Part shown: piece after piece, positions 17,055 through 53,392 of the stretch
Layout: each line of letters starts with the position of its first letter
Numbering within the stretch: the first letter of the stretch is position 1
Origin: Harriotta raleighana
Lineage: Eukaryota
DNA: 64,000 nt
NCBI GenBank assembly: GCA_050575255.1
Contig: JBNZDD010013633.1
Coordinates: forward strand, 626,792-690,791
Reading direction: 5' to 3'
Notes under the pieces: model-generated
What the model was told of the DNA's origin: nothing
What the model saw: the letters and a program-made list of their open reading frames with translations, nothing else
Databases searched by the model: none
Translations under genes and position numbers: made by a program

Positions 17055-17582
<528 letters not shown>

Positions 17583-20575: not shown

Positions 20576-20824
20576 CATTGATTTTCAAACTGTGGGGCAC
20601 ACCTCCCCTGGGGGCCGCGAATCATTGGCTGGGGGGGTGTGGAGCTTTGGAGTCTCAAGGACCTCGAGTACGTGTGGAGCTGAGGACCTGAGTGGAGCCG
20701 AGGCGGAGCTGAGGACCCGAGTATGTGGAGCCGAGGACCCGACTGTGAAGGGGGCGGGGTGGGGCCGCAATGAAAACGTTGCTGAGTTAGGGGGACGTCA
20801 CTATTCCAAGATTGGAAGCCACTG
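20576..20824. mobile_element. hAT (Charlie-like) MITE
   Basis: Imperfect TIRs CATTGATTTTCAAAC / GATTGGAAGCCACTG; 8-bp TSD CTCTAGAC / CTCCAGAC. Confidence 0.75.
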
Positions 20825-21747: not shown

Positions 21748-21933
<186 letters not shown>

Positions 21934-22417
21934 TAAGTTTTAACCTAGTACATCTTGAATTTAATATGTGGGATGGAAATGTGGTTGGCATTTTTAATGT
22001 GCTACAGAACGATTGACAGGAAGGTGCAAAATGTAGCAACAGCTGTATTCTTTTAAATTAGCCAAGTGTGGGTGATCCTGCACTATTCTATCAGGAGCGC
22101 TTTCTCCTCAATGGCATTGACATTGAGAAGATTCTGGACCACAGATGCAATGATCTCACAAGAGGTCGACCAAATTAATATTTTATAAATTCCTTCGATA
22201 AATACCTTATTTTTGGAATACTACAGAAGCAGTAGAGGAATGACTGGGAAAGCACTTCCATTGACGCTTTACGATGGCTCCCTGTCAGAGGAGCTGCACA
22301 GTTAGAAGTATATAGCAGAGAGCTTGCGGGGTCTGGTGGACTGCAAGAGGTAGAAAAGCAAGTCTTGCAGTACTTAACCTCTGCTGAACTCAGTTCAATG
22401 TATTAGAACTGTAAAAA

Positions 22418-23010
22418 CAATAATAATAATTGTTGCGTTTGATATAACGCTTTTCACTTCTAGGCATCTTAAAGCGCTTCACAGAATATACTCTAAAGTG
22501 AATTGACATACTATATATATATGTGGGTGAAACATGGCGGCCAGTTGTGCACAGCAGTGTCCTGCACACAGTTGTGCATTGAAACGATCAATTTACTGTT
22601 TTTTTTTAGGGTTTATTATTAGGTGTGTGAGTAAGGAAACTTGCCCAAGGTTTCGCTCTGCCTGGAATTGAACCCAGGTCTCTTGCTTGCAAGGCGAGTG
22701 CTCTAACCACAGGGCTACACTGTTCAGTGAAATCTAGGTCCATTTCCCGGCAGGTTGAAACCTTGAGCAAGTTTTCTTACTCCACACGTCAAATAACAAT
22801 CCCGCAAAAAAAGAAAATAATAATAATAAATTGGTCATTTAAATCCACGCCTGATTGTGTGACACTGCTGTGCGCAATTGGTTGCTGTGTTTCACCCGCA
22901 TATATACAGTCAATTCACTTTACAGTATATTCTGTGAATACTTTGAGACGTCTAGAATATGTGAAAAATGCTACATCAAATACAAGGATTACTATTTTTA
23001 TTTATTATTT
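22418..23010. mobile_element. Two SINE copies head-to-head (22418-22720 minus; ~22730-23010 plus)
   Basis: Same SINE body in opposite orientations, (ATT)n tails pointing outward. Confidence 0.8.
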
Positions 23011-23373
23011 TTTCCAACAGAGGTACGTAACAGCTACTACACTTGTTTGTAGGATATTGCAGGTGTGAGTTAGGTGCTGCATTTATCTATATGACATCCA
23101 CTTTCTAAATAGTCTTACTTTGGAAAGTTCTTTGGATATGCTAATTATTCATGAAAGGCACTATATAAGTGTAAGTTGTTCTTGTTAATGATTATTTGTA
23201 CCAGAAATCACTTGGACACAATGTGACATTAGAATGAAAGCACTTAACAGGATTTATTGTGAAGTCTTGTAACTATTTGTTGACAATGGGGAAAAGAATG
23301 CACTCATTTTTCTACTTTGTGGTTTGGGCAGTCGTATCGTAGTGGATTCATTGTTTTGTTCCTGTGTCTTAAG

Positions 23374-23536
23374 GTGTGTGCAAGGTGGAACCACAGCTAT
23401 TCCAGGGGCATTCGGCTGTGGAAAAACAGTTATTTCACAGTCTCTCTCAAAGTATTCCAACAGTGACGTTATTATCTATGTTGGATGTGGAGAGCGTGGG
23501 AATGAGATGTCTGAAGTACTGAGAGACTTTCCAGAG
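23374..23536 (+). CDS. ATP6V1A: ATP6V1A coding exon 6 (Walker A / P-loop)
   Basis: [54 protein letters not shown]. Confidence 0.98.
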
Positions 23537-24082
23537 GTTAGTTTAATTGTATTATCAGAGAATATCAATATAACTTGTTAAAGTGGGATTTGTGTTTTGT
23601 CAATTCATTATTTGTATTTTTCTGACCGATACAAATTGGATGTAAACAGATTCAAAAGGTTATTGCCAATAGGCCATGCTGAAGTATCTTTTTGAAGAGA
23701 ATTTGCTAAAATGTTTTAGCTTAATTCTTATGTGAAAACTCATCTGGGTTCACTTACTTTTCTGGTGGATAAAGCATCATGTTTTCAAGAATTATGATAT
23801 TCCAATTTGTCTTCCCTCGCGGTGCTCATCTAAATTAATTGACTGCTCATCTCATTGTCATGAGATGTTGGTGATGCAGATTAGCTAGTGTTTGTTAATG
23901 TAACGTTCACTTCATTTCTAATCAGTTTAATATTCAATTGAAATTTATTGGATATCAATTGGGGTATATGGACAGAATCCTCATATCATTGGAAAGGAGT
24001 CTTGCCATTGGCTTGCATTTTTGCTTTGCATCATGCTATATTGAGAATAATGTTATCCCTCCTTTCTCCTGCTTTCTTATAG

Positions 24083-24253
<171 letters not shown>

Positions 24254-24799
24254 TAGGATATTGATGGCTATGAAAAATTACTGAGGTTATTTTGAAAAAA
24301 CAGAAAAGATTCTTGTCAGCTCCTTGTAGCTTTTAATGCAGATTTTGTTCAGTGGAAATTCTACACTATTTTGGATAAGTTGCCTGAGTCCCTTTGCTCT
24401 TCAATAAATGTTCTTAATCATTTAAGTGTTGTTACAAAGTAATGTATTTACATTCAGAGCCTTGTCTGGATCTATCAGTGTCCAGGGAGAGGTAACAATC
24501 TAGAATTCCTTATATTTGAGTGGTTAACTGGGACATATTGAGGTAAAATGATTTGCTCACCTTTGTTTTTGAAATGTAATTTTCTCAAATTACTTTATAG
24601 TTTTTAAAATAAAGTGTATGTAAAAAGTGTGAAAGTGTATTGAATGAGATTTAGTTTGAAGCCGTGTTGTGGCCTATTGCTTAGTCTACAAGCAATTTAA
24701 TCCTAATTTTTGTGGGTAGTCAATTATTTCTGTAATCTTCAATTCATTTTACATCTTACTGCTTGGTATTTAATTGCACAATTTTCATGTTGAAAATGA

Positions 24800-24964
<165 letters not shown>

Positions 24965-25549
24965 TAAGAAACTTTGTACAGATACAGTATACTTTTCACA
25001 TATCTTATCTATCTCTAAGATCTTTATCTAAATGCACAAATAATAGTCCTAATTGTGCATTTTAATGTGTTAATTGTAGCACCTTTTGTATGCTTGGGTT
25101 CATTTTCCATTTGTTCCAGAATTTGGCATTCCTGAAGGCAATTTTAAGAATTTGTAGAAAATGGGCTTCAAATTTAAGGATTACAGCAAAACCAATTTCA
25201 AACAACAAACAAAATTACGGTAATGGCTGAAGACTCACCCGCCAAAGATGGGTTCTTATTACTCGGCTCTTGTTAACACTCCAAACTCAAATAGGTAATG
25301 TCGAGCTATGGAATTTTAGCTAGTTAAATTCCAGCATTTTATGCCTTAGCATATAGTTATGTCTTAGCATTGTCAAATCCTGCCAATCAAATACTTTGTT
25401 TAAGGTATGTATCTAGTTTACAACTAAACAACATTTTAATACAGGTGCAGAATATATTCCTGGAGATGTTCTTAAATATTAACATAAAACCAGCTTACTT
25501 TTGAGTATCTTTGGTTTCGCAGAGATGGTCATTACCGAAATACGTTTGA

Positions 25550-25714
<165 letters not shown>

Positions 25715-25957
25715 TAAGTAATATTCACATGATACATTTAGCAGAAGATATCCCTTCATCTTCATTCAAATGTGAATTAGGTATGAAAGACATTCTGTGG
25801 AGTCTGTTTATAAAGTGTCCTCTGACTCAGAAGATGCCCAATAATATGGACAACCTGCCAAAGGCTTTATAGGGACTAATGTATATTTGGATTCTTTTTA
25901 TCCTAGTGCAAGATTGATATTGTCAAAGCTGTGAAGAGTCATAAGTATCTGATATTG

Positions 25958-26240
25958 TGGAGTCCTGTAGCTCAGTGATTAGAGGCCTCACAAGTGAGAA
26001 ACCTGAGTTTGATTCCCAGCAGGGTGAAACCTTGGGCAAGTTTCCTTACTCCACATGCCTAATAGTAATCCCTCAAGGGAAAAAATAAACAATAATAAAT
26101 TTATCACTTCAATCCACAAATCTTTGTGGTTCACTGCAGTCTGCAACTGACTGCACGTTTCAAATTCTATTCTGTGAAGTTTTTTGAGGTCTAGAAGACG
26201 TGAAAAGCAGTATATCAAATACCCAGGATATTATTATATT
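25958..26240 (+). mobile_element. tRNA-derived SINE
   Basis: GGAGTCCTGTAGCTCAGTG head, shared body, (ATT)n tail. Confidence 0.8.
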
Positions 26241-26718
26241 GTATGGTTGGGAAGGAAGCTTGGTGAAAATGTGAAAGTGCCTTCCGTTAACCATACCCAA
26301 TCCATTCAATTACCTAAGGAAAGGTTCTATGTTTCTGTTTCCAGCTCCCCCGACCTTCAAAGTTCCAGAATATTTATTTCGTTTTTATTTACTTCATTCA
26401 TCCTTGATGGTTAACTCACCTTGTTTGTCCAACCTATGTTTAAGCACTGGGATAGAAATACCTTGTAGATTTACCTTATTAATGTGGTATTTCAGATTCT
26501 GTTGAATTCAATTTTAACTTTCAGGCTTGTTTTCTGTAGTTCTTAAAATACCTCATTGAAAACCAGCTTGAAAACTAAAGATTGAACTTTACAAGTTTTG
26601 ATTTCTTTGAAATGCTATTTTAATAGAGTCAATACAACCCAGGTAGAATTTTACCCCACATGTCAGTTAGTCCAGTTAGCCAATTGCAATCTGAAACAAT
26701 TTTTGAGTTTCTCTTTAA

Positions 26719-26847
<129 letters not shown>

Positions 26848-27319
26848 TGATCTGAAGTCCTTCTGAATAGGTGCTACTTCAAAACTATTGACAATGTGAA
26901 GCATAATTGCCATTTCTAACTTTTGAATGTGAAGTACAGTAAAACCTTGATAACCTTGACATTCTGAAAGCCGGCAACTCCCTAACACCGGCATTTTGGA
27001 GCTTAGCATTTTTGGGCTTTAGTGCTGTGTTTACATCTTATGTGGTACTGTACTTCTAAAATGTCTGGATGATTTGCTAAAGTTGTAATTTGCCAAAATA
27101 ATTTCAGAAAGCAGTTTAAAGAAGAGACCTCTTGTCTAGCAAGAATTGACTGTTTTGTTCACTGTCCATTTCCTTCAATTCAGGTTATTAAAAAAAGCAA
27201 TCTCTGCTTTGGATAACACTTAGCAAAATTCCTCAAACATTTTGCACAATTCATTACTTTGAAGTGTCCAGAAATGTTTGTAGGCATGGCTGATTCAAGA
27301 ACATCCAATAAAATTGTAG

Positions 27320-27577
<258 letters not shown>

Positions 27578-28302
27578 TGATCATTCTTGAGATGTGGGTT
27601 ACACTGGCAGAACTAGCATTTATTAACGACTGTCCAGCACTTTGAGATGTCCTCCTGTCATGAAAAGTGCTATACAAGTGTAATTTTGTAGTTGTTATTA
27701 CTTAGCCCTGGTTCCATGAGAAGTTAGTGCTCTCTAAGATCATTCCTAATTGTTCTTGAAGAGTATTTAAGGTGGAAGAAAAATGAAAGAAAAATGGAGG
27801 AAAAAAAAAGACCTATCTGGTCGATTGAAGTGCTAAATAGCTACAATGGCATAATCTAAGAATACCACTGCCTCATTTTACGCATGGTAACTGAAACAGT
27901 GACATGATTAAAATTGTGAGCTCATTGAATGGGGACCCAGATTCCTGTTCCATCACTCAGTGTTGTAGAATTTGAGTCACCTTCAGGAAATAAATATTTG
28001 TTGGGATTTCATGGAATGTATATCTATGCAACTTTTGCGGTTTCTTTTACCTTAATGTTTCACATTTATTTTGAACTCAATGTAATGACAATCTTCCGCA
28101 GAAAACAGTAAATTATTTTGTGTAACAGGTTTTGTGTACTTGTATGTATTTTAAGAATGGTTTCTTTTGACGGTTACCATAAACATTAAAACAGTATATG
28201 GTATCAGAAATTTAAAAACACAAGTATTCTAAATACAGTGCTAACAAAAGAATGTTTGCTTTCCTTTGAATTTCAATTAGTTAGTTATTAATGCCTTTTT
28301 AA

Positions 28303-28410
<108 letters not shown>

Positions 28411-28759
28411 TAACTTCTTTCCTTGCTTCATTTAAGTTCCAGCAATTTACCAAACACTTCTCTGAACAGATAATAGTGAGTACTGCACAATGGTTTGATA
28501 CAGTATAATTAATTTCCAAGCATCACCTCTGATCTTAGTTAATAATCGAGCAGAAAAATATTGATAGGATAGAAAATTAGTTCTGCATTCCACAATTTGT
28601 CTAACTAGGAGATATTTGTATGGAAAATATCACTCTAGGTTTTTAATTTGCTTCAAAGTTTGAATGGATTTAGCACATTATATTGCACATGTAAATTCAA
28701 CTAATGGATACTAGAAACTGCTTCTATTTGTGGAACTGAGTAACTAATATTACAAATTA

Positions 28760-29537
28760 CAATAAAACCTGTTTACCCGTGACTCAATCAACCGTAACTT
28801 TCATATAACCGGCATCTCAAAAAAAGTCCCCATTCAAATAACCGGATCTTACCCGGCACAATCGCAATGGCGCATTTAATGAGTTAATTGTCGCATGAGA
28901 GTACAGTACGATTAGTTCTGAATGCTGCCAGTGGTGGCATTTCCGTTTTTTCCTCTTAAAGCAGCACTGTCGTTTTTTTCTCTCTCTCCTTTTTCTCTCC
29001 CTCGTTTTCTTTTTCTTTCTCTCTCTCCCTCTCCTTCCTTCCTCTCTACCTCTCCCTCTCTCTTTCTATCTCTTCCCTTCTTTCTTTCTTACCCTCTCTC
29101 TCTGATGGATATAACATATTGCCTGTGTAGCCTGATTGTATCATGAGTTGATTAATTTAGATGGAAAATGAGAGGAGCGGAGAGGGGTTGGGTTTGGAGC
29201 CATTGAGATGCCAGACTGACTGAGTGTGTGTGTGAGAGAGGGGGAAGGAGGGAAAGAAAAAATAGAGGAAAAACCGACAATACCGCTTTAAGCCACGACC
29301 GTCTACCATTGTAGAAGTTTGCTATGTGATTGTGTGCTGTGTTTATAGACCGTAATCAATATTTATTGCTTTATTGGTAAATATCCATACAATATTCTGT
29401 TATTATTCAGGCTAGTATTAATATGGTATGTTTAAAATAAAAAGTGTGTTGTGTTGGGTTTTCGGCCGAATATCCGGCTTGCCATTTAACCGGCATTGGC
29501 CATGTCCTGGGGGTGCCGGATAAACGGGCTTTTACTG
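28760..29537. mobile_element. Tigger-like MITE, both ends present
   Basis: TA-CAATAAAACCTGTTTACCCG ... CGGATAAACGGGCTTTTACTG-TA; internal CT-rich and GA-rich tracts. Confidence 0.75.
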
Positions 29538-29706
29538 TATCCAAATATTGCATAATGTTGCACAAATTATTTTAGAACAATCCAAACAAGGGCATATTGG
29601 TTGTAATGAACTAGAATTTTTCATGAATTAATTTTTTAAAAATTCAAATGAATTCTGCTGTAAATACAAGTTCCATTATGTTTTAATGCTCTGTATTTTC
29701 TTAAAG

Positions 29707-29878
29707 GTTTTGTCCATTCTACAAAACTGTCGGTATGCTGTCAAATATGATTGCTTTCTATGACATGGCACGCCACGCAGTTGAATCTACAGCTCAAAGT
29801 GATAACAAGATTACGTGGTCGATCATACGTGAACATATGGCTGAGATCCTATACAGGCTGAGTGCCATGAAATTCAAG
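29707..29878 (+). CDS. ATP6V1A: ATP6V1A coding exon 13
   Basis: [44 protein letters not shown]...MKFK. Confidence 0.97.
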
Positions 29879-30235
29879 GTAATCGATGTTTGTTTTTAAA
29901 ACAGCTATGTTTACAAGAATGTTGAACAGTAGTCTATATATATATTCACAAATGAGAATAATTGATGCCATTCTCGAATGTGAGGGTGGGAATAAACCAA
30001 AGCATTGACCTCATCGCTTTGCACCCGAGACAAGTTACACTGCTATCCTGTCTAAAATAGTCAACATCTGGCTGAAATGCTTCAACTCCCAGCTGGGGGA
30101 TGCCACCAAAGTTATCTTTTTAAATATTATATTTTTCTTTACAAAATGAGTTAGTTAAACACATTTAAACAACTCAATGCTGATACTTTACTGAAACTCG
30201 GCAAAGCGGAATTACTAAACCAGTTTTCCTAAAAT

Positions 30236-30605
30236 GTCACACTGGTTTGGTTGGTAACACACTTGCCTCAGAGTCAGGTTGTGGGTTCAAGCCACATGTC
30301 TGGGTTTTGTATTGACTGCCACTCCAGTACAGTGGAGCTTTGTGTTGTAAAATGTGATAACCTTCAGATGTGATGTTAAACTGAGTGTGTCTGTTCTGGT
30401 GGTCATTAAAAGATCCCATCATACTATTGGAAAAGAGAATGGAGTTTCTCCTGGTATCCTTGCCAACAATCCTCCCAGATAAAATTGATTATTCGCTTTT
30501 ATAGAGGTTTATGGTAAATTTGCCAATTGGCTGATGAGTTCTTGTTGTTTGCCAATTGGCTGCCACGTTTGCCTGCAAAATTCACCAAACTTCACAGTAT
30601 TTGGG
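30236..30605 (+). mobile_element. Old Deu-domain SINE (SacSINE1/AmnSINE-like)
   Basis: tRNA-like head GGTTGTGGGTTCAAGCC, then Deu-like CTTCAGATGTGATGTTAAAC...AAAAGATCCCAT...CTCCTGGTATCCTTGCCAAC. Related copies at ~2915-3170, ~38095-38300 (-) and ~50750-51095. Confidence 0.6.
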
Positions 30606-30784
30606 AGCCTTGTTTAAAAGTACAATGTTGCAATTTAAATAGAGTTCACAGGATTTCATTTAATGCAGTGTGTCAAGTTGAATCATTTCTGTTACGAAAT
30701 GTTTTACTAAATAGAGATATCTAGAAATGTTTCAATTTGACAGGCTAAACAATATTGGGGCTAATATTTTTATTTATTTCCCAG

Positions 30785-30877
30785 GATCCAGTGAAAGATG
30801 GAGAAGCAAAAATCAAGGCAGATTATGTTCAGCTTTATGAAGACATGCAGAATGCATTCCGAGGTCTAGAAGATTAA
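30785..30877 (+). CDS. ATP6V1A: ATP6V1A last coding exon
   Basis: [30 protein letters not shown]. The spliced CDS totals 1854 nt (617 aa) with all phases consistent. Confidence 0.97.
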
Positions 30878-32628: not shown

Positions 32629-34023
32629 TATTTGGATTGCTTCTCCTCCAGGTTATATTGGAGTGTGGAGACTTCAGCATTTAATTTAGAGTGAAAATAC
32701 TTTGAGTTTATTGCATGCTGCTTTCTTGTGTGAAGCCTTTTACCTGTATCCTGCTACTGCTCTCAGAATAGTCACTCCACTTTACAATATATCCTGTGGT
32801 TTAGGACGTCCTAACGTGAAAGACACTTCCAAATGCATGGATTATTATCCAGGTTTCATTTTTGGATAGCTGTTTTATGTCCTGCCTACGATCTTATGGT
32901 TTAATTGGCATTTCTCTACATATACAGAAGGTATATGCTTTAGAGATGTGAAGATAATGAAATGATGTATGTAGTTTGGGATAAATTCACTATTTAATAT
33001 TAAAAGCACATAATATGATGGTAATGTTTGATGTAGGGACCGAAAGCAACTTGATCTGCCAGTTCTGTTTTCCAGTATAATTCACAAGTCTTTTTGGTCA
33101 TATAAATGTAATTAAACTGGCATGATTTATTGATCCTTAGCAGAGCAACTTTTAGGAGTTTACGTATGGCCTGCTCTGAACCAGTCAGACCAAAGATCTT
33201 CAGTTAATCTGCCTTTGTCAAAAGTGTAATTTCTAGATGAAAGGTAGGTAGAAATGGGGGGGGGAAATCTGAGAATGTCTAAATGATTGTGCAATAGATA
33301 TAGTATATAATTTCTAACAAAGGAGACTGAAATTATGTGCATTTCTTTCTAAACTAACCTGATGATCGTTCACTTCGAACTTTTTAATTTCCACAAACCA
33401 TTTCATGTGAATTTCCATTTCATGTTAAATCTATTTTATAGAGCAACTGGGACATTTGTAGCATTTCAGACCACTCTGAAAATAATTCAAAGGAATTAAT
33501 TCAGTTTATTAAAATATCCTTGTTGGCAAAGCTATGGAAATTTATATGTTGTCAAACCGGATGGACTACTTTGAGAATGCTGGTCTATGGAACATCAGAT
33601 TTACATGTTTAATTGGTCATTTGTAAAAACAACTTGTGTAGGTAAAGGGGTGCTGTTTCATTGAAGTATCACGATTTTCTTAACCGTTTAATACTCTTAA
33701 ATTGTTTCCTGTTTGAGCAAGTGAGCAGTCACTATACATCGGTCTTCATTGTATTACATTCATGTTCAAAAGCCTTGTAGTTCAAAATATAGCAGTGAAA
33801 TCTAGATGTAATTAATTTAATGTTATAAACAGATATCAAAAGAGCATCTTGAAAATTAAAGCATTCATGCAGCTGTATTGTGATTAATGCAATAATTAAG
33901 TTTGTAACTCTTTCAGTGGTTCTGATGCTACTGTTGTCCAGTAAATGTATTTTTTTGTGTGTGTGCACAGGCAAAGTTGTTTTCATGTTTGGTCATTGTG
34001 CAAAATTGTAAAAATCCTGGAAA

Positions 34024-36399: not shown

Positions 36400-36586
36400 A
36401 CCCATTTTAAAATTTATTGATGATTAAACAATCTCACAAAAAGCAGCACTAGTGTGTTGACAGCCATATCAATGACGAAAACAAAATTTGAAAGTGAATG
36501 TGACCACTTTTGAAAAATCAAATAATGGCTGGAAACTTATTTTATAACAGATAATATTGATTGCTGAATTGTGCATGACCTTCATG
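36400..36586 (-). other. Candidate terminal exon of the Ig-superfamily gene (stop after one codon in phase 1; 3' UTR with AATAAA at 36413-36418)
   Basis: Strong minus-strand acceptor CTAACTTTTTTCTTTATTTTTACAG|CATGA and a downstream AATAAA. Confidence 0.4.
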
Positions 36587-37447
36587 CTGTAAAAATAAAG
36601 AAAAAAGTTAGTGTAATAAGCAGAACTGTACATTATAAACCATGTATACAATTACTTAATATTAAGTCAGGGTTTGGAATGGATTTTTCAGATGTTTGAG
36701 TACTGTTGCATTTGAAGATAATACTGGGGTTATTATCTTCAAATGCTAGAGTTAATCCTGCAATGTTGAACAATATTAAATGCCCATAGAAACAACTGCA
36801 ATAAATATTACTGGACTATTTCACCATCTGCCCTACAGTTATCTTGGCAGTGAGTGGCTCAGCACCAGAACAAACAATGATGTTGTTCCAAATATCCAAG
36901 TTAAATTGTTTTCATGTGCTTTTTGCATAAAAAAACTGAAACTCTTGGGTTTTCGAATGTAAAAATGGTAACTGGACTATAGAGCAAAATTCAAGGATCA
37001 GTACCTCAAGCTTTTATTGCAATTCTGCTGTAATGCATAATCAGCATCTGAAGCATCAGGGTAATTAGCCTTATATATATCCTTTCATAGAGAAAGATGA
37101 GAGAATCTTGTAGGATGGGGAAAATAAATAGAAGTGAAGTTAGTTAGCAAACATTCTTCACACAAAAAGTTGCGAGAATGTGAATGCACTGTCACTGCCG
37201 TTCTGCATGAAGAATAATAAGATTCCTTACATTTGATACAGTGCTTTGAGACATCTTGAAGATGTCTCAAAGCGCTTTGCAAAACATATTGTAAGGAGAA
37301 TTGATTATATTTTGTGGGGGAAATATAGATGTTTAAGAGGGAAATTGATTTTAAAACCTACTGTCCATTATCCTTTAGGCATTGTTTGAGTTGTAGATGA
37401 TGGGTATGAATTAATTGAATTTTTAATTAATTTGGCAAGTATCTCAC

Positions 37448-37588
37448 CTGATGGCGCATCTGATATTTGACATGACATCTTCTCCCTGAAGTGTGGTACA
37501 ATTACTGTCAAAACGCCAAGACAAATCCCAACAGCAGCTGCAACAATCCCAACAGTCATCCCTACAGTTTCTTTAAAACCCCAAATCT
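37448..37588 (-). CDS. Transmembrane exon of the Ig-superfamily gene
   Basis: Acceptor TTTTCTTATTCTTCTCCAG, 141 nt, phase 1-1, donor CAG|GTGAGA. Encodes IWGFKETVGMTVGIVAAAVGICLGVLTVIVPHFREKMSCQISDAPS: hydrophobic helix followed by basic residues. Confidence 0.75.
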
Positions 37589-37627
37589 CTGGAGAAGAAT
37601 AAGAAAACATACACTGATATATATCTA

Positions 37628-38010
37628 TGCAGTCCCTTAGCATAGTGGTTAGCATGCTCGCCTCGCAAGCAAGAGGACCCAGGTTTGATTCCCGGGTGGG
37701 ACAAAACCTTAGGCAAGTTTCCTCTTCCACAAGGCTCTGTTTATCTAGCAGTATGTAAGAACCAGGTTGTTAGTGAATTGGCAGATCACTTTCTGGGTGT
37801 AATAATCCCTTCCCCACCAAATCCACAACTGCACACTGCTGAGCGCAATTTGGCTGCCGCGTTTTCGCCCATAAATATAGTCAATTTTTCCTACTTTCCT
37901 TCCCCCGACCCCTCCATCCTCTATTCTGATCCCTCCTTGACTGTACAGTGCCTTGGGACGTTCTCCCGACGTGAAAGGCACTATATAAATGTAATTTTGA
38001 TTGATTGATT
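37628..38010 (+). mobile_element. tRNA/CORE-type SINE variant with (GATT)n tail
   Basis: tRNA head, CCTTAGGCAAGTTTCC...CTCTGTTTATCTAGCAGTA core-like block, tail GGGACGTTCTCCCGACGTGAAAGGCACTATATAAATGTAATTTT(GATT)n. Confidence 0.75.
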
Positions 38011-38526
38011 GAACTGTTTGTAGGACACCACTTTGTGCAATTGGCTGCTGGGTTTCGATGACAAAATTAACAATCAATTCAGTTTACAATATATTCTGTT
38101 GGCAAACAGAAGACCATTTGCACACAGCAATATCCGACAAACAACCATGAAGTGATTCACTCATTATCCAGTTGGGGGAAGGCTGGCCAGTACGAGGAAT
38201 AAAAACGTCTTGTTTCAAATAGTGACATGGGATTTTTAACATCTAGCTGAACAGGCAGTGCTCAAATATGATTCAGAAGTGAAAGTGTTGCCAATAGGCT
38301 AGGCTAATACCTAAAAGTTGGGTTAATTTACCAGTGTAGTAATTCTTATTTTCTGAATGAAAATCATTGCAAAGAAGATGAAAGCCTTAATGAACCCACT
38401 TCAAATATAAGAAATGAGTATGTATCAGTTTAACACTTAGGTGATGCTGATAAGCACATGGATACATTTTGATGATGAATGTCATCACGCATTTATAGTA
38501 TTGCGGATGTCAGTGTTTTCGATCTT

Positions 38527-39186
38527 TCAATAACGTAACCAAAAATTATCTGCTTTCTGCTTTACCACAAGATGTGCTCCATTACCACTTAAGTCTCTCC
38601 CATCAGGGAGTAACAATGTACAGAAATATCTGCCACAGTCATTCTTGGTTACATTCAGAATTGTCATAGAAGCATCTCCTTTTGACAGATCACCACTCAG
38701 AAAGATTCGCTTTGAATAGATGGTGGAATCAGACGAGCTATATGTTAGGATAGGTATCCTCTCAGTGATGATTTCCCTATACCATGTAACAGAGAGTTCA
38801 CCTGGAAATGCACCATCAACATTATTATGGTATTGACATGGCAAAATCACAGATTTCCCTTCCCGAACTTTCAGCTTGCCAAGGCCCTGATCTACAAACG
38901 TTCGCTCTGATTGAGTCAGTCCCTCTTCAGCAGTCATTTTAGCAACATCGGTTACATTTGATAACGCTTTGATTTCAATAAATAACGATTCATTCCCAAC
39001 TGGCAGATGGAAGGCTGTTGTTACTCCGCCCGAGCTGGTGGATTCTAACTCATCTGTTATCCCTTCAGCCACAGTTTTGTTATAAAGGATTTCAGGATGG
39101 GAGAAGAACAAGGTGGCATTCTCACTTCCAATCACATTGTCAGCTTTGATGAACGCAGCTAGTGTTAAAAACAAGAAACATTTCAT
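38527..39186 (-). CDS. Ig-superfamily V-set (VJ-type) receptor ectodomain: signal peptide, N-glycosylated stalk, V domain
   Basis: Uninterrupted 219-codon ORF in unique sequence. Motifs: VREGKSVILPC (C117), VTWYRE (W135), R160, DASMTILNV, DCGRYFC (C189), J-like GNGAHLVV; five N-x-S/T sites. Confidence 0.85.
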   Translation of the reverse strand: MKCFLFLTLAAFIKADNVIGSENATLFFSHPEILYNKTVAEGITDELESTSSGGVTTAFHLPVGNESLFIEIKALSNVTDVAKMTAEEGLTQSERTFVDQGLGKLKVREGKSVILPCQYHNNVDGAFPGELSVTWYREIITERIPILTYSSSDSTIYSKRIFLSGDLSKGDASMTILNVTKNDCGRYFCTLLLPDGRDLSGNGAHLVVKQKADNFWLRY

Positions 39187-42100
39187 CAGAATTTAATACA
39201 TTCTCACATTTGGTGTTATCCAGATGCAAACTCCAGGCCTTCTTCTCCTATAAGTATTTTACCTTTTTTGATGCAGCTACTGAATGGGAAACACAAAACA
39301 TTTAATTTTATCAGCTGAAAATTATATGTAACTTTCTTTGTATTTGTCTGATTTCAGCTGTCCTATTTTAGCGTTGCTCTCTGCTTATGCCATTTCCAAG
39401 TTTCTCCCTCTGCCTGTATCTCTGATCAACCTTCCACAACTCCAACATAAAATTCAGTAAACAGCTGAAGTTCAATGTGAGAATCTTTTACCCTTTTGAG
39501 CTCACAAGTCAGGCAGTACCATTTCATTATGCAGTGTCCAGAATAATAACTGATTGGAAAATACTGATTGTAATTACTCTGTTGTAAGTACTAACAGATC
39601 AGATTGAGTAGTTCAGGGGATGATTAATTAATATGCATGTGCATCTATACTCAGTCTATTTAATTACTGAGAGACCTATTGGTACCTAATTCCAGTACTC
39701 TAATATTAGAATCAAAGCATGTGGTTTCAGATCATAGGACCTCATTGCATAAATGGCAGTGTGATATTCGTGGCTCAGAAGAGAGAGTAAGATAGACTGT
39801 CACAGACAAAAATATGGCTTAGAACATTTTACTGGAAAACAACTAAGGGGTGAAATAAAAGAGACACAGAAAGAAAAAGAAAATTACATTCAAAATCCAT
39901 TTACCAGTTATCATAAACAAAAAACCTCTGCAGTATTTATCTAATTCACTCTTTAAAAACTTAGTAATGGTAATTTTATAACTGTTCATACATTGATAAC
40001 TCATCTCTTTTGAGAAGTGAAAATGAACCATTGCTGCACATCTACATTCATACAATTATTTATTTACTTATTTTAATAGATGTGCTAAAATATGTCATCT
40101 CTACTCTGTTTAGTTATAAACCACAATGTAACTCAAAATATTCTTGTGCGGAAGTTAGACAATGTCTCAATTTATCAATTGGCCAGTCAACAAAATGAAG
40201 ACATCATCAAGGCCCCTATTTTCAAATAAATAAATAAAAATAACACTTGCATTTGATATAATCTCATTGAGATGTCTCAAAGTGCTTCACAAAATTTTTA
40301 CTGTCGAGTGACTGTAATATTTGTAGGTGAACTAACACATCGATTGATATATCTCAAATCATCATTTTCATCTCCTGTCCCAGAGTAATGTAGCAAAGTT
40401 GAAGGAACATAAATGTCAAATATGTGATATAAATTTAGAATTCTGAAAATATTGAATCAGATCTGTGAAAGTTGAATCCACAATACTTTCTCAGCTTTGA
40501 AGTGATATGTATAAATATTTCCTGATAATGGAAGGATCCTCTATTTATGCAACTCGGATTGTACACCAAGGAATCCTGTTGAAAATATGTTTAATAACTC
40601 CATTATCCAAGCATGNTTGAATCCACAATACTTTCTCAGCTTTGAAGTGATATGTATAAATATTTCCTGATAATGGAAGGATCCTCTATTTATGCAACTC
40701 GGATTGTACGCCAAGGAATCCTGTTGAAAATATGTTTAATAACTCCATTATCCAAGCATGTTAGTTATCCAGAATAGTTTAACATCGCATAATCACTCTA
40801 TCAAATAATGAATAGAAATTAAAGCTATGTTTTAAGTATCATCTTATGCAGTTTGATATTTACTGCAAAAAAATCAATTATATGGTTAACACAATTGTCA
40901 CCAAGTTTAGATTTTAGCTTTTACTCACCAAATAATAATATGGCTGCAAATTGCAAAACTGGAGGAATGAAGAATGTAACACAAGAGGGTTTCATGGTGT
41001 CTGAGACTTTCATTAGGAAAGAAATGTGGGATGGGCTAGAGAGGCTTAGTCACATTATTTTGTGACGCTTAGAATTTATTCGAGGTTATAGATATTGCGA
41101 AACATTTTAGAAAATCTGAAAAATACTTTGTTCATTTTGTGTGACACAGAATAACTAAAAATATTTAAATCTCAATAGATAATTGCATTGTATAATTTGA
41201 ATAAATTATTGATAATGTGAAGTTCTAATGAATATGCATACTATTTTGAAGAAAATAATTTCACGCACAATATCTTCTGCAGCGTGATTTACAATGCATT
41301 ATACAATACTTATTGTCCATTGGATTATGAGAACAATGTCACTTATACACAATAGCCCTGATAAAATCTTTGCAAAATGAAAGCAAAATTATTAAAATGT
41401 GAATCTAACTTACTACACCAAAGACAAATATATTTTCAATTCATGTACTGTTCCTGGACTGAGTAGGCATTATGAGCCTTTCAAATGCAAGTTAATTATG
41501 AGCCTATTGCACAAATTGTCCATTTGTTCCCGATAACACCCTTCCATAATCAGGAAATACATATACATATCACTGTAGTATTTTAATTATTGCTTTCAAC
41601 TGATTTTACATTATAATTTGGATCGATTACTATCAATGAGAAAGAACAGCAGAACAAAATTAGGGATGATCATGGCAACATGTTGAATTTAAATGTGTTA
41701 CTAAGATATTCCAATTATAATGAATATAAGATAGAAATATTGACTTTTTACAGTTGAACAAATATTTGATCTGGTCACTGCTAGTCTTAAATTGGGCTCT
41801 ATTAAATATCTAGTAAATATCACATGAATTACATATGTAATCAATTTTTCATAAAACTTAATGCAGCATTTACTTTTCTCAGTCCTCCCTCTTTCACTTC
41901 ATAACATTAGCGGTGGCATAAGGAAGAGTTAATCCAATCAACTGTTGCAGATCCAAATGCCTAGTCAGGGTTAATTTCTCTCCTGCTATTCAGCCTAAGG
42001 TCAGTCCCTAAATACCTACTGACTGGAATAGATGCCAACCTAAGTGGGGGGGAAATACTTCAAGGGGGGTTTACAAAGTACAACATGTCCACAACTGTTT

Positions 42101-45614: not shown

Positions 45615-45740
45615 GTAACAAACACTGAACAACCCTTGAGCAACTTTAATTCTTTCTTAGATTTGTCAAGTCACGACCAAGACTCAGAGAAAACATGTTC
45701 AGCTAATGCCCATGACTGGAGTACAGACTGGAATTTTTGG
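45615..45740 (+). CDS. GRAMD1C: GRAMD1C coding exon 2
   Basis: VTNTEQP...NAHDWSTDWNFW; the W-rich end matches my recollection of the GRAMD1C N-terminal motif HNWSGDWSFW. Donor GTGAGG. Confidence 0.8.
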
Positions 45741-46209
45741 GTGAGGATGCTCTACTTGAAAATCATCATTACAAAAATATTGAAAATTATCATTAGAATT
45801 TTTTAACTTAAATTATATATAATAATAATCCCTCGAATGGCTGCCATATTTCACCCATAAATATACAGTCAATTCACTTTACGGTTTATTCTGTGAAGTG
45901 CTTTGAGATGTCTAGAAGACGTGAAAAGCGCCTTATCAAATGCAAGGATTATTATCATAGCAGAAAGGGTAGATGGGGATCAAGATATTATTACAATTCA
46001 AGTGTTACAGGAAACGTTTTTAATAAATCAACAAAATAATATTTACATAATGTCTTTCACATAAAGAAATATCTGAAAGCACTTTGCACAATAGAATTAA
46101 TGATAAATGAAGTGAATGTTATGTGAGTAAATATTTTTGTTAATTTGCACAATCATATCCTGAATGAAATGAACACTTTTCTTTGAAATAACAAGGGCTG
46201 GGATGTTAA

Positions 46210-46510
46210 TAATAATTATAATCCTTGCTATTATTGATAATAGCACTTTCCACATCTTCTACACGTCTCAAAGCACTTCACAGAATATACTGTAAAATGA
46301 ATTGATTATATATTTGTGGGCAAAATGCGGCAGCCAGTGTCCCACAAACATTGAGTGACCAAATTATAATTGGGTTTTTTTTCTCTTGAGGGATTATTAT
46401 CAGGCCTGAGGAAGAAGGAAACTTGCCTAAAGTTTCGTCTTGCTGGAAATCAAACCCAGATCTTTTGCTTGCAAGGCAAGTGCTCTGACCATTGTTCTAC
46501 AGGACTCCAC
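46210..46510 (-). mobile_element. tRNA-derived SINE
   Basis: Same family, head at ~46510. Confidence 0.75.
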
Positions 46511-46642
46511 ATGGGAATTCTTTAAGCAAGGCATGCTTTGGTCACATTCCACAGTGTTGAATGTCTGCTTGATACACCTGTGTGGATATAGAGTTTAATA
46601 ATTTTTCACATACAGTAGATTTTCACATTCACGTCAGGCGGA

Positions 46643-47078
46643 CAACAACAACAACAACAACAAAATTACACTTATAGTGCGCGTTTCACGTCAGGAGGAC
46701 GTCCCAAGGCGCTGGACAGATTGGTTCAGGACCCGAGCAAGGGAAAATGTTCAGGGCGAGGGGGGGGAAGGGTGGGAGCAAGGAGGGGGTAGAGACTCGA
46801 GAGGGGAGTTGAAGGCACGGTCGAAGAGAAAGGTCTTGAGACCGGCCTTGAAAGAGGAAAGGGAGGAAGCGAGGCGAAGGCACAGGGGGATGGAGTTCCA
46901 GAGCCTGGGGGCTGAGCGGCTGAAAGCCCGGCCGGCGATGGTAGGACGGTTAGGGCAGGGGATGTGGAGCAGACCAGTGCCAGAGGAACGGAGGGTACGG
47001 GCAGGTAGATAGGGGGATAGTAGGTCGGAGAGGTAGGAGGGAGCAAGGCCGTGAATGGCCTTGTAGGTAAGGATGAGG
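46643..47078 (-). mobile_element. Young 5'-truncated L2 LINE
   Basis: CpG-rich, similar to 370-800, long (TTG)n tail. Confidence 0.8.
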
Positions 47079-47343
47079 ACATCTCAAAGCGCTTCACAAA
47101 AGCACTTTTGCCAAAAGTTCCAAATCAAGTAATTTATAATAATAAACCATAAGTTTGATACAGTGCTTTTCTTGTTGGGAGGACTTCTCAAAGTGCTTCT
47201 TGGGATTTAATGTAAAATGTAGTACAGTATTTCCTTTCTAAGTTTCTGTTTTGAAGCAAACTTGCCAATTTGTGTCCCATAAAGAGAAGAATGATCAAAC
47301 TTATCTTGTTTTATTGTAATAAGTTTATTGTATCATATTACAG

Positions 47344-47428
47344 CTTGTCTATCCCACATACAAGCAAAGGAATGATGAATTCAAAAAACAATTCAAAGAT
47401 CTTCCAGAGTCTGAACCCCTTATAGTAG
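47344..47428 (+). CDS. GRAMD1C: GRAMD1C coding exon 3 (GC donor)
   Basis: LVYPTYKQRNDEFKKQFKDLPESEPLIV(D); the frame requires AG|GCAAGT. Confidence 0.9.
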
Positions 47429-50169
47429 GCAAGTAAGAAACTTTTCAATCAAATTAGATGTTATATAAATATCTAAACTAAAATAGTTTACATGTATTAA
47501 TAGCTTCTTCCCAAAGAGGGAAAGGGAAAGATTGAGCTAATCAGTCTATCTTTTCCAAGACGTTATATGATTAGAGCTATTGGAATTTCAGATTTTCCTA
47601 ACATAATGTTTAATTGTTACTTGCTTAATAACGAGTGGTCAGTTGAAAATGTGCATTTGTCTTCTACATTATTCTACATTATAGTACTGTAAGGCAGAAA
47701 TATTGAATTCTGGAAGAATAAAACCAATCTTGATCTGGGTGACAAAGGTAGTGCGTGTTGGAGGACCAATACAAAGCACTGAAATGAAAAGTGACATACA
47801 CTTTAAGTGGTTTCTTAGCTGCATTCCTGATCGCAATTCACCAGCAGGATATGAGCTGAAATTATTTGAGATTTCCATTATGTTCCTCCTATCTTACTAT
47901 CTAGTGGTATTAGTAGTGATCACTCCTGGACAGAAAATGTGTGTAACCCATGGGAGGGTCTTTCAGGGGATGGACAAACATTAGATTGAGGCCATTTCAA
48001 TCGCAAGGAAATGACATTGCTGGCGGAATATCCATAGAAATACCATTAGAGGACAAGGACATTCAAAATGACAACAAAGTGCAGGATGAAAGAAAATTGT
48101 TGATTCACGATATTCAATCAGATTGGCCAGAGAGAGAATTTGTTCCCCACCTGAGATTATTCCAGATGCAAGAATATTTTACAGGATGACTAAGTGAATA
48201 GCATATCTGAATGTTGCCAGACTTTGATGTTATATGACTTTGTGGAGCTCTATAGCTCAATGGTTAGAGCACTCACCTCACAAGCTAGAGGACCTGGGTT
48301 TGATTATCAGGCGAGGCAAAACATTAGGCAAGTTTCCTTACTTCACATGCCTCTGTTTACCTAGCAGTAAGTAGGAACCCAGTTGTTAGTCGATTGGTGG
48401 ATCACTTTTCTGGGGGTAATATTCAGCGCCTTGGTACCCATCCTGACATGAAAGGCACTATGCAAATGTAACTTTGTATTGTATTTTGTATTCTCTTCCA
48501 GAAAAAACGTAAAGAAAAAAATAATTTGATCACTCAATCCACAACTGTTTGCAGGTCACTGCTGTGCGCAATTCTCTGCTGCATTTTACCCTCAAAGTAT
48601 ACAGTTAATTCACATTGCAGTATTTAAGATGTTTCAAAGATAACAACAACAAAATTACATTTTTATAGCACCTTTCACATTGGGAGGACATCCCAAGATG
48701 CTGGACAGTCAGTGTTTTGGACCCAAGATGGAGGTCGGAATCGGGGAGAATGGAGGACCGTGGGGGGTGGAAGGAGGGTGACCAATGCAGGGTAGAAGAG
48801 GAAGGTCTTGAAGTGGATCTTGAAGGAGCCAAGGGATGGGGCAAGGTGGAGTGAGTGTAGGATGGAGTTCCAAAGTGTGGGGGAAGAATGTCTGAAGGCT
48901 CACTAGCCAATGGTGGGGCAGGCAATGGTGGGGCAGGCAATACTATATCAAATGCAAATGCAAGGATTATTATTAAGAGAGAAACAACAACAATTTGTTT
49001 ATTGAATTTATATAGTGTCTTTCATGTCAGGAGGGCATCCCACGTGCCCTTATGAAGAAGATGCAAAACTTTCTTCTGCAAACTCTGGGCTAACACTCTG
49101 GGAATATTTTCACGAGATCTATGAATGGCCTGATCAAGCAGAAACATACTCTCCTACAGAATGCGCTGGATGGGCAATGGGAACATCCCGAGTCTCATGT
49201 GATATCAGTTTCTCTGGGCTGCTGTTGCAGAGCCTCCAGCTTGAATGAGTATCCTGCAAAAGGTTTAATGAAATATCACAAATAACTCAAGGGGTTTCCT
49301 CCAGATTGGCATTGTAGTGCAAACTGTGGATTCTAGGTGGCAATTCTTTGGGAGACTAATACTGTATTATTTCCTCATGGTTGATATCTTCAGAACTCAA
49401 TGAAGACAAATATTGAAGCATGGATCATTTTCTATTATTGACACTGGATCACACATGCACTTGAAATTCAAATAGACTGTTGCAGGCAACTTGAGAAGCA
49501 GAACAGAGATGCGGTTCAAATCCAGCAAAATATTTTTGGGACGCAATGCGTAATCAATATCAATCAATATCAATCAATATCAATCAATCAATCAAAATTA
49601 CATCTATATAGTGCCTTTCATATCCCAAGGTGCTGAACAGTCAGGTAGGGATCAGAACAGGGGGTGAGGGGTAGGGGGAAGGAGAGTAGCAAAATTGACT
49701 ATATTTGTGGGCGAAACGCGGCAGCCAAATTGCGCACAAATGTCCTACAAACAGTCACAGAAGTGGGGCCAGGGGAGAAAGGGGCAAAAGAGGGTAAGGG
49801 AAAGGTGGGGTAGAGTAAAGTCAGAGAGTAAAACATGGATGAATTATTTTTATTTTATTTTTATTATTGTTATTTTTCCCTTAATCAGTAGAAGTATATA
49901 CATCACCAAACCCTTCAATGAAAGTACTGTGAGAGAAAATTGTGCAGGTAATTTGTAAAACATTTCACAAAAACATAACAAGTGAGATTTTAAACTTCTG
50001 TTGATGATAGTCTCACCAAGAGAAAGAAGTTGTTATTTGAAAGGCAACTCTGCAACAGACAACATATTTAAATGCCTTAAAAGTGCCAAGAGTTTCCAAA
50101 ATGTTTTGCTACAAGTATTGCAACATTTGATTGTCTGATTTCTATTTTCTCTGCTTTCTGTTGATACAG

Positions 50170-50273
50170 ATTATGCATGTGCATTACAGAAGGATATATT
50201 GTGTCAGGGACGCCTCTACCTCTCTGAAAACTGGCTTTCTTTTCATAGTAATATCTTTCGGTGGGAAACATCT
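50170..50273 (+). CDS. GRAMD1C: GRAMD1C coding exon 4 (GRAM domain)
   Basis: DYACALQKDILCQGRLYLSENWLSFHSNIFRWETS. Confidence 0.95.
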
Positions 50274-51221
50274 GTAAGTAACTTTATGTGGGAGAAAAAT
50301 TGCTAAAATTGTCTGACACAAATAAGCAATAGATTGCGGAGTTGGCTTGAAGCTTTTCCACCACATGATATCTGAATCATTATGCTGGTGTTTTTCATAA
50401 TGCATCATCATAGTGAGATATTTCTGTTGCTTGGTGCATCAGCAACAAGGGAGTCTAAACTCTAGATGATGATCAGAAGCTTAAAGGGTGAAGTTGCAAT
50501 TTTTTACAGGTAGGATTGTGCGTTATTACTGAAACTGAGCCAAGAGTTTTAAATACATAAGTGAAGAGTAAAAAATCTAAAACGTATGGAGAGCTTGCAT
50601 GACAGATGTATTTTGTATAATTTATATATTTTTAAAAAGTACTTTTACTGAGATTGTAAAGTGTACAGGGACATTGCCTGAATCCATAGGACATCAACAG
50701 TGTTATTTATTTGTTAATCTCACAAGTTGGAATTTTTTTAACAAGCTTGTCAGCTTGTTTCAGTAGGTAGCCTCATTGCCTTAGTAGGAGGCGCTCAAGC
50801 TTCTGGTTTAAGATCTAACAATTTAACAATTTAATCTGAACCTCCAGTCAGTGCATGTTAACATAGAACTGTTTTGTTGGAGGTGTAGCCCTTCGGATGA
50901 AATTTTAAATCAAGGTCGCATTAACCTGATCTGATGGATGTTAAAGATCTCATGGTTGAAAGAGAAGGGAGTTTTTCCTGGTGGCTTGGCCAACAATCCT
51001 CCAAATGAATTTGTCATTCACTTCTTGATTGATTGTTTAAGGAACATGCTGTACACACGTTGGCTGCTATATTTTACTTACACTTGACAATTATTCACAT
51101 TACATGCCCTTTGTCAAATGTAAGAATTACTATAAATAATTAATTGTTTATCAGAAGTTTGTACTTTAAGTACCACTGATCATATTTGTACTTTTATCGA
51201 TAAAGCATTTTTGTTTAACAG

Positions 51222-51317
51222 ATTACACTTTCTTTGAAGGACATTATCTCTATGACAAAAGAGAAAATGGCAAGACTAATACCCAATGCTATTCAGATTT
51301 GTACAACCACTGAAAAG
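51222..51317 (+). CDS. GRAMD1C: GRAMD1C coding exon 5
   Basis: ITLSLKDIISMTKEKMARLIPNAIQICTTTEK. Confidence 0.95.
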
Positions 51318-52231
51318 GTAAAGCTTTTTTTCTGAGATTAAGTAATTCAGTTGCTTGAATGTTTTATTTATGAAGTAAACCATTTACTTTATGAGGTGTA
51401 CAAACACACAACTTGATTAAAAAAAACTATCAGCCATTCAAAAACTTGCAGTGTTTAGTGTTTGGAAAAATTCTACAACACTGCTCACATTCTTCAAAAA
51501 GAGATAAATTGTAGTTCCTCGTATCTGTACATACAATATTTAGGTTAAGCTCTTAGGTGCAAGAGTACAGAACATTAAGTACAGTACTGTACATCCATTA
51601 CTTTAACTCAAGGCATTGTTCAAAGCTTCACTCTTTATACAATAACAGGCATTTAAGGTATTTTGTTACTGCATTAAGTATTACAATAAACTCAATTGTA
51701 GTTTTCTATATGTGGACTAATTGCATACAATTCAAATATAAAAAGGGACCTGACTCGACATAAGATTTTGATCTCTACTCGAAAGATTATCCTTATCCCA
51801 CCATACAAGTTGTAGAGGGATGGATACACAATGCCTGCAACCTTAACACTAGGTTATAAAAGCACACTTGGCGATAAACAGTTTATCAAGTCTATACACA
51901 ATACAATACTATTTTACATTTCTATTGCACCTTTCACATTGGGAGAACGTCCCAAGTTGCTTGACAGTCCTGGATTGGCACTTGAACTGACAGTGGGAGC
52001 CAAGAGGAGTAGAGAGGGCAAAGATTCCAGATCATAGAAAAAAAGTAAAACTGGGTCAAACAATTTAAGAGCAAACTGTAAAATATTGAAACATTGCACT
52101 GATCTATCTATGATCATTGCAAAATCCCAACTAGGATTGAAAATTGTATTCATGTGCAACATTCAGTAGAAACCAAATAAAAGGAACCCAAATATTTATT
52201 TGTTAGCTAAATATTTTGTTTTTTTTAATAG

Positions 52232-52312
52232 CTTTATTTCACTTCTTTTACTGCAAGAGAGCGAACTTATCTCAATATCTTCCGAATGTGGCAAAATGCA
52301 CTGCTTGACAAG
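52232..52312 (+). CDS. GRAMD1C: GRAMD1C coding exon 6
   Basis: LYFTSFTARERTYLNIFRMWQNALLDK. Confidence 0.95.
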
Positions 52313-53392
52313 GTAGGAATTGGGGTGTCAAACAAAATTCTCAAAATTCATGGTGGCAATGATCCATAATATTATTTAAAAGCCACATATGGCAAGGACA
52401 TAGCCCATTACATGTTTCGATAGCAGAACTACAGTACCTTATAGCTATTTATAATTTTAATATGGTAGTTTTAAAAATAAACTGACCCAGCAGTTATTTC
52501 TGATTGCTCCAGGATCCATTTATATCATGTTTTAATATGATACCCTGTATGTTGTGTATGTGTTTCAAGTGTATAAGAAGTGAAATAACATGGAGCAGAA
52601 TTACTAAATTGTTATCCCCATGGAAAACTAAAATGTTGTGTGTCATTCCTCTAATTTCCAATTGTGTTCAATTCATTTTCTCCCGTTTTGAACACCAGTC
52701 CTTGGATTCATTTCTCAAACTTTTTGTTCTGATTTGTTCAGTCAGTGAAGCCCTCTTTTGCATTCCCTGGCTGTGTGGAGAAGTATTTAATGGATATCAA
52801 GGCAATTTGTGGAAATAAATGTCATGTTATGAAGCATTACATTCACTTGTAGATTTGAGTTTCATTTGTTTCAATACTATCAGAAACACAAAGGAATATT
52901 TTTGTTATGATTTTTCTTATTTGCTTTTTAACATTTTGGTTGCAAGCCACCATAGGTATAACATAACAAAACAATTGATAAGAACTTATATTATTATTTT
53001 ACTTTAATTGCATTTAAATGTCAGGCTCTTAACAAGAGAACATTTTTAGCAACAGTGTAGAGAAATTCAATAGGTCTGTGAGACCATAAGTTTGCTGCCA
53101 ACAGGATACACCTACCAAAAGAACAACTTGCGTTTATATAGCATGTTTCACGCAAGTTGAGGTCTCGAAGTTCTAACAGCTACCCGTCGAGCTGGGGAGG
53201 GGACCGTAGGCACGGTCAAAGAGGAAAGACTTAGGTACATTCGGAAGAGGGGCAAGGAAGAGCAAGGTAGATGGATTGAGGCAGAAAGTTTCAGAGATTA
53301 GGGCTGTAATGCCTGAAAGCATAGCTACTGATAGTGGAGCAAATGAGACAAGGGACATGTATAAGAAAATGGCATAACAAGCAATGGTATAA

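Follow-up and report, generated by a model that had tools for sequence, protein, structure and literature searches.

The stretch of DNA analysed here, 64,000 nucleotides of the chimaera Harriotta raleighana (contig JBNZDD010013633.1, positions 626,792 to 690,791 of the forward strand; hereafter the window), carries on its minus strand an immunoglobulin (Ig)-type membrane-protein gene which, judged from its sequence, is the orthologue of Callorhinchus milii LOC103177565 and chicken LOC418355. As far as targeted searches go, these genes represent an undescribed ancient family of membrane proteins with a single V domain. With moderate confidence, we favour the explanation that this is an ancient, unnamed gene of jawed vertebrates, likely to encode a non-signalling accessory or adhesion subunit, and that the copy in the window is probably decaying or gives mainly a product without the transmembrane (TM) segment. 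The original prediction, made by a model from the letters and a list of open reading frames (ORFs), had proposed an unannotated-looking receptor gene; the gene is indeed unnamed in the records, but public annotations already contain predictions of it, under names that carry no meaning. The labels TIM-3/HAVR2, SYG-1, kappa V, IGSF6, SCN-beta and NCR3 attached to its orthologues are inconsistent automatic names and were rejected as identities. The novelty of the gene had been made dependent on the lack of a clear one-to-one named orthologue; orthologues were found, and none of them bears a meaningful gene name. Targeted literature searches returned no paper on the LOC103177565/LOC418355 family, an earlier mention in surveys of VJ genes not being excluded, and searches on GRAMD1C together with ATP6V1A or NAA50 gave no related paper, judged by title and start of abstract.

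The Callorhinchus protein was the only match of a single-protein search (77% identity; one of 119 candidates). The wider family was gathered from representatives at 50% identity (best 150 of 493) and by a profile search (120 of the 124 records listed); the 124-record set is bird-heavy, and raw counts taken from it overstate independence. Orthologues were obtained from cartilaginous fishes (Callorhinchus, Mustelus and Scyliorhinus), from ray-finned fishes (Polypterus, Erpetoichthys, Amia, Lepisosteus, Scleropages, Arapaima and cypriniforms, including Danio) and from sarcopterygians (Latimeria, Protopterus, squamates, turtles, crocodilians and many birds, including chicken), and the nearest neighbours of 18 mostly unnamed rows that were checked were birds, reptiles or the fishes listed. 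The suggestion that the gene is lineage-restricted or was lost in tetrapods does not hold, the gene being present in birds, crocodilians, turtles and squamates. No mammal, amphibian or euteleost was found among the named matches listed in these word-limited searches, which does not prove loss.

The Callorhinchus and chicken genes and the Danio and Polypterus proteins annotated as “immunoglobulin superfamily member” have the domain order and TM motif of the window gene, and the combined signature of V domain and TM exon is common to the family and the window. A profile of the TM exon, built from the family, scored 61–83 bits on nine members and at most 5 bits on the other representative matches, which marks the family as discrete. 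A quick tree built from 76 V domains (122 columns) placed 38 family rows on one side of a branch separating them from an NKp30-like group (SH-aLRT 96), and the family gene tree broadly followed the species tree; the same tree put two long-branch outgroups within the family and does not fix the deep forks or the sister group. The V exon and the TM exon each gave one close match in their own genome (lower bounds), and the family is apparently single-copy. The only other own-genome match of the V exon, a link-protein (HAPLN-like) gene at 30% identity, was considered as a paralogue and ruled out; this locus (L002, G000:C13630:1237086-1240391) encodes a V domain followed by an apparent link module and was read as a HAPLN-type gene.

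The gene has four exons on the minus strand, encoding a leader, a stalk plus V domain, a TM segment and a short end. As the original prediction had stated, a V domain is present on this strand: the ORF at 39186-38527 (219 codons) matched Pfam V-set PF07686 at residues 104–208 (E 1.5e-13; 51.3 bits against a cut-off of 26). The B-strand Cys, the C-strand Trp, the D-x-G-x-Y-x-C motif and the V-type fold are all there. The germline VJ-type organization within one exon was likewise borne out across the family, since strands A to G, including the GxG, lie within a single exon. Of 124 records, 123 carry the GxG and 122 show a spacing of 11 residues between the Cys and the GxG. The G strand reads G-x-G-T-K-L in nearly all records, and the J-like motif of the window, SGNGAHLVV, was found as described. 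The residue before the GxG is mostly T, Q, K or E and not F or W, and the C-strand W-Y is followed by K, R or N and then E. Two Asn sites in the V domain are invariant in 21 representative rows. In the AlphaFold model of the Callorhinchus protein, the V domain mostly exceeds pLDDT 90, a helix spans residues 230–262 and the stalk falls below 50. Judged on structure and sequence matches, this is a VJ-type domain without a clear closest family.

The layout with a stalk before the V domain, which had been singled out as unusual, proved to be a family trait: 54–107 residues, leader included, precede the V domain across the family. In the window, this segment comprises 84 residues (32% S/T/E) with four N-glycan sequons, in agreement with the earlier description; its sequence is unconserved (4–28% identity between Callorhinchus and nine orthologues) and predicted to be disordered. 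Conversely, exon 3 is conservative, with a maximum-likelihood (ML) tree length of 4.04 against 8.67 for the V domain. It encodes a juxtamembrane acidic motif, a TM helix with a G-x3-G-x3-A-x2-G face, a basic stretch and a conserved Cys; G235, G239, A243 and C265 are invariant in all 21 rows, P257 occurs in 18 of them, and the acidic residue stands at position 232. The phase-1 TM exon with GxxxG motifs and an uncharged core had been recognized correctly, and the core lacks a charged residue in 117 of the 118 records with a TM segment. The short tail was also confirmed, the terminal exon of the window giving one residue and a stop; in the same 118 records, the tail has a median of 17 amino acids, with Cys in all of them and Tyr in three, at no shared position.

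The evolution of the TM exon at less than half the rate of the V domain, together with its glycine face, points to a non-signalling accessory or adhesion subunit that acts by helix packing. Moreover, the absence of a tail motif and of a charged TM residue, combined with a small-residue helix face and a Cys, makes packing in the membrane with a partner, with the V domain binding outside, the most likely mode of action, in the manner of accessory and adhesion subunits. Homotypic TM interfaces are reported to be associated with GxxxG more than with any other feature (available text of PMC7649602). In this scheme the leader would be cleaved, and a disordered, glycosylated stalk would stand outside the membrane-proximal V domain, shielding it or adding glycans. 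The helix would pack through its invariant G-x3-G-x3-A face against itself or against a partner membrane protein, the tail Cys would be palmitoylated, the V domain would engage an extracellular counter-receptor, and any signal would come from the partner. A homodimer prediction with two V-plus-TM copies, run without an alignment, scored 0.02 against a mark of 0.32 and has no bearing either way.

The state of the window copy depends mainly on the end of exon 2. All Callorhinchus forms leave this exon after K-Q-K-A plus one base; at the corresponding position, 38549, where Callorhinchus joins the V exon to the TM exon, the window has AT instead of GT. This site fits seven of nine donor consensus positions, missing +5 and +1, where the G is absent. 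Nine orthologue models that run into the intron, picked records and not the full set, were compared with the window: five continue with G-N-I, G-N-A or G-N-F (bird-like, crocodile, turtle-like and coelacanth models), two with G-E and two otherwise, and the window has D-N-F against G-N-F in the coelacanth. This fits an ancestral GT donor that would have been altered by one transition. A U12-type AT-AC intron was ruled out by the AG acceptor and by the absence of the U12 signature from the donor. With the donor lost, intron 2 would be retained up to a stop seven codons past the exon; alternatively, a weak donor 15 nt downstream might rescue a minor membrane form. No phase-1 GT other than the one at 38534 occurs from the V domain's end up to the stop reached by read-through, and phase-0 and phase-2 GT sites near the end of exon 2 lead to stops within exon 3.

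The window copy differs from the orthologues above in its AT donor, a lost C′-C″ sequon and a private Cys. The sequon is near-invariant (114 of 124 records, and Callorhinchus). The extra Cys in DCGRYFC, reported in the original prediction, is present and unpaired, but it is not a family feature: Cys occurs at this position in none of 124 orthologous records, and His stands there in Callorhinchus and in 110 of 124 other records. Among 24 differences from Callorhinchus in the V and TM parts, 14 lead away from the family consensus and five toward it, with five ties (p=0.064); a three-way test with Mustelus gave 14 against 6 (p=0.115). ML gave the window branch a length of 0.20 in V and 0.075 in TM and the Callorhinchus branch one of 0.00, which places nearly all change within the chimaera pair on the window branch. 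Two other irregular models were met in the family. In Coturnix japonica, the LOC107320165 models (P0040, P0170) go out of frame where the V domain ends and lack the TM segment, which is either an assembly error or a second independent break. In Scyliorhinus torazame, isoform X4 (P0085) joins the stalk straight to the TM exon, and this skipping of the V domain implies a donor inside exon 2.

Several points weigh against the favoured explanation. GxxxG motifs do not always drive dimerization (available text of PMC8307134). The V domain aligns over its full length to NKp30 and to Ig light chains, which keeps an immune role open. As for the window copy, the AT call rests on one assembly base, and the excess of changes on its branch is not significant by either test above. 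Callorhinchus has been reported as the slowest-evolving vertebrate genome (available text of PMC3964593), so the branch asymmetry is partly expected. Finally, every coding exon is open and no other splice site is damaged, a state that a long-dead gene would have lost. Early decay or a mostly TM-less product was nevertheless judged likelier than an intact gene, with one assembly base carrying the argument; unless the base at 38549 is an error, the copy is probably decaying or secreted.

It is possible, if somewhat unlikely, that the window copy is intact and gives a normal membrane protein, either because the A at 38549 is a minor allele or an error of the assembly or because the GT at 38534 is spliced efficiently. 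The open frames and intact sites would agree with this, as would the TM exon, which is identical to that of Callorhinchus at 41 of 46 residues and keeps the G/A face and the Cys; moreover, two single-N joins in the window, one with a short duplicated overlap, indicate that the assembly is not flawless. At the same time, the 38534 site fits just five of nine consensus positions, no second copy or haplotig of this stretch was found in the assembly, and the lost sequon and private Cys are independent oddities in the same exon.

Another explanation concerns the family as a whole: it might be a lymphocyte or natural killer (NK) cell receptor akin to NKp30 and to pre-RAG VJ genes, signalling through an adaptor bound by the TM segment or the acidic motif. 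The VJ geometry is the ground for this reading, which we consider unlikely. Like NKp30 (NCR3), the family has a non-rearranging VJ domain in one exon with the same Cys-to-GxG spacing, a single TM segment and a short tail; two orthologues are auto-annotated as NCR3, the Danio orthologue aligned to NKp30 over the whole domain (38 bits), and a turtle orthologue was nearest to Ig light chains. However, SCN3B scored as well with the Danio protein (40 bits), and NKp30 was not among the best 60 of 104 matches for the window protein, whose nearest single-domain sequence was TIM-3. NKp30, which is expressed on NK cells and binds B7-H6, contacts its adaptor via a charged TM residue; the family differs in its uncharged TM core, in its N-terminal stalk and, in the quick tree with its unsettled deep forks, in lying on a separate branch from NKp30-like proteins such as P0154. 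This gene is single-copy and conservative, unlike immune receptor families that evolve fast. NKp30 is MHC-linked (available text of PMC10751288), and the window gene is not MHC-linked here. The unnamed tandem-V proteins P0021, P0133 and P0154 form a group; the best solved match of P0154 is NKp30, and P0021 has a CDR3 similar to that of the LOC103177565/LOC418355 family.

Fold comparison gave ties among P0, SCN2B, the T-cell receptor (TCR) delta V domain, light chains and SIRP, the nearest solved folds being P0 (Z 16.3, rmsd 1.9, 113 aligned residues), SCN2B (16.1) and TCR delta V (16.0). NKp30 and CD28 were absent from the structure-search rows shown (Foldseek and VIA, with generic V-set ties) and are not thereby excluded; a profile search of solved structures was swamped by multi-domain sums. 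The language-model neighbours after the first match, which was probably the family's own cluster, were P0/MPZL1, SCN4B, CD83 and CD226. The P0/MPZL/SCN-beta group thus supplies the best-tied structures, and it resembles the family in its single V domain, TM segment, juxtamembrane Cys and adhesion or accessory role; the TM segment of P0 is glycine-rich as well. Identity to this group is just 22–25%, and the family differs from it by its single-exon V domain, whose G strand is J-like, the N-terminal stalk and the near absence of a tail. The V exons of the P0 group are split.

CD28-family or NKp30 membership, which the original prediction had considered, was not borne out by motif, tail and TM features. 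The CD28 family (CD28H, CD28HL1-3 and CD28X; Quiniou et al. 2024, PMC11599192) shares one V domain with a GxG, a TM segment, presence from cartilaginous fish onward and patchy loss; it is recognized, in the available part of that paper, by a CDR3 motif (PPP, PxP or EIP), a cytoplasmic Tyr motif and named synteny markers. Here, these CDR3 motifs occur in 0 of 124 records, there is no Tyr motif and the neighbours are ATP6V1A and GRAMD1 instead; the main text of PMC11599192, as available, has no mention of GRAMD1C, ATP6V1A or NAA50. Membership was therefore ruled out on all three features. UrIg, UrIg2 and PRARP are similar in their intact single-exon VJ domain with a split leader (available text of PMC12227049). 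They differ from the present gene, which has no C1 domains, no F or W before the GxG and no link to the MHC or an antigen-receptor complex in the window. A gene of this type was ruled out, since in the window and the orthologues the V domain is followed directly by the TM exon (compared with the available texts of PMC12227049 and PMC10751288). The antigen-receptor V-J class was rejected as well. In that class, an F or W before the GxG and a Gln after the C-strand W-Y are the V-V pairing residues, and neither is present.

The patchy retention of the family recalls CD28X and CD28HL (available text of PMC11599192), in line with the lymphocyte or NK receptor reading. In its widest form, that reading would make the gene a non-rearranging VJ receptor that has been overlooked, shares the age of jawed vertebrates and is an ancient relative of NKp30 and of the pre-RAG antigen receptor. 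It would have stayed single-copy on a 3q13-like block, with separate losses in mammals, amphibians and euteleosts, would assemble with a partner through its TM segment and would have been turned into a secreted form by the donor change in the chimaera lineage; we give this version little credence. That the donor loss was an adaptive switch to a secreted stalk-plus-V protein (a decoy or soluble ligand), possibly disulfide-linked by the new unpaired Cys, is very improbable: the early read-through stop and the annotated TM-less Callorhinchus isoforms X5 and X6 would suit it, but no AATAAA or ATTAAA occurs between that stop and exon 3 (the first such signal stands at 37427), conservation of the TM exon remains high, and the stop lies upstream of further junctions, which normally triggers nonsense-mediated decay.

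The gene model was corrected by tblastn of Callorhinchus proteins onto the window (Table 1). The supposed signal peptide MKCFLFLTLA turned out to be the polypyrimidine tract and AG acceptor of intron 1, and the true leader, with 21 of 22 residues the same as in Callorhinchus, sits 1.8 kb upstream. Exon 2 contains no stop or frameshift (160 of 202 residues identical to Callorhinchus), and the ending in exon 4 agrees with those of Callorhinchus isoforms X4 and X6. In the alternative terminal exon of the window copy, the homologous residues are out of frame with the acceptor. Of nine Callorhinchus records, V9KZF1 is presumably cDNA-derived.

Table 1 Coordinates of the Ig gene and of its neighbours in the window
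Feature	Position	Strand	Basis or remark
Exon 1 coding part, true leader	40929..41013	-	tblastn with Callorhinchus proteins, 86-95% identity
Leader start codons	ATG 41013; second in-frame ATG 40995	-	sequence
Leader donor, canonical phase-1 GT	40928	-	sequence
Intron 1 end (polypyrimidine tract and AG acceptor)	39159..39186	-	signal peptide of the original prediction
Exon 2, phase 1 at both ends	38550..39158	-	leader end, S/T/E-rich glycosylated stalk and complete VJ-type V domain
N-terminal stalk, about 80 residues, four sequons	38899..39141	-	precedes V domain in the same exon
V-set domain with GxG G strand	38563..38877	-	Pfam match
Orthologous exon 2 splice donor, AT for GT	38544..38549	-	Callorhinchus exon join and window sequence
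Weak in-frame phase-1 GT, possible rescue donor	38529..38534	-	15 nt downstream; 5/9 consensus positions
Stop codon reached on intron 2 retention; TM-less product	38527..38529	-	sequence
Exon 3, phase 1, TM	37448..37588	-	acceptor and donor intact
Exon 4: one residue, stop 36584-36582, 3′ UTR	36413..36586	-	AATAAA at 36418
Alternative terminal exon, homologous to that of Callorhinchus isoform X2	33984..34016	-	sequence comparison
ATP6V1A coding exons, left neighbour, tail to tail	16621..30877	+	PF00006 matches at 23366 and 24821; start and end exons
GRAMD1 gene exons, right neighbour, divergent	45615..61201	+	exons 45615-45740 and 61083-61201; GRAM domain at 50163

The proposed flanking genes were partly confirmed: ATP6V1A lies on the left and a GRAMD1 gene on the right, and the latter is probably GRAMD1C, a paralogue assignment that we take from gene order. 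The VASt profile had no match on the contig. NAA50, named as a further neighbour, was not confirmed inside the 64-kb window; a weak acetyltransferase match (E 0.32) lies on the minus strand 13 kb to its left. Between the Ig gene and the GRAMD1 gene (41013-45615), a GC-rich stretch occurs near 42600-43100 and, the two genes being divergent, they may share a promoter region. A duplication of about 100 bases surrounds a single N at 40616 (40435-40735), and a second single N stands inside a G run at 42825; both resemble assembly joins. A tandem duplication of about 120 bases was seen within a repeat at 44470-44750. Inspection of translations by eye additionally suggested degenerate LINE-like reverse-transcriptase fragments (315-2340, 34180-35430 and others) and many SINE-like repeats in the window.

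Interest in single-exon VJ genes comes from the search for relatives of the gene that was split by the RAG transposon (available text of PMC12227049), and the LOC103177565/LOC418355 family is one such gene, not found described in targeted searches. Unless the secreted form proves real, what has become of the window copy matters only locally. The apparent mammalian loss adds to the Ig superfamily genes that are missing from a human-centred inventory. Since orthologues are present in chicken and Danio, expression analysis, knock-out and identification of the partner are directly possible.

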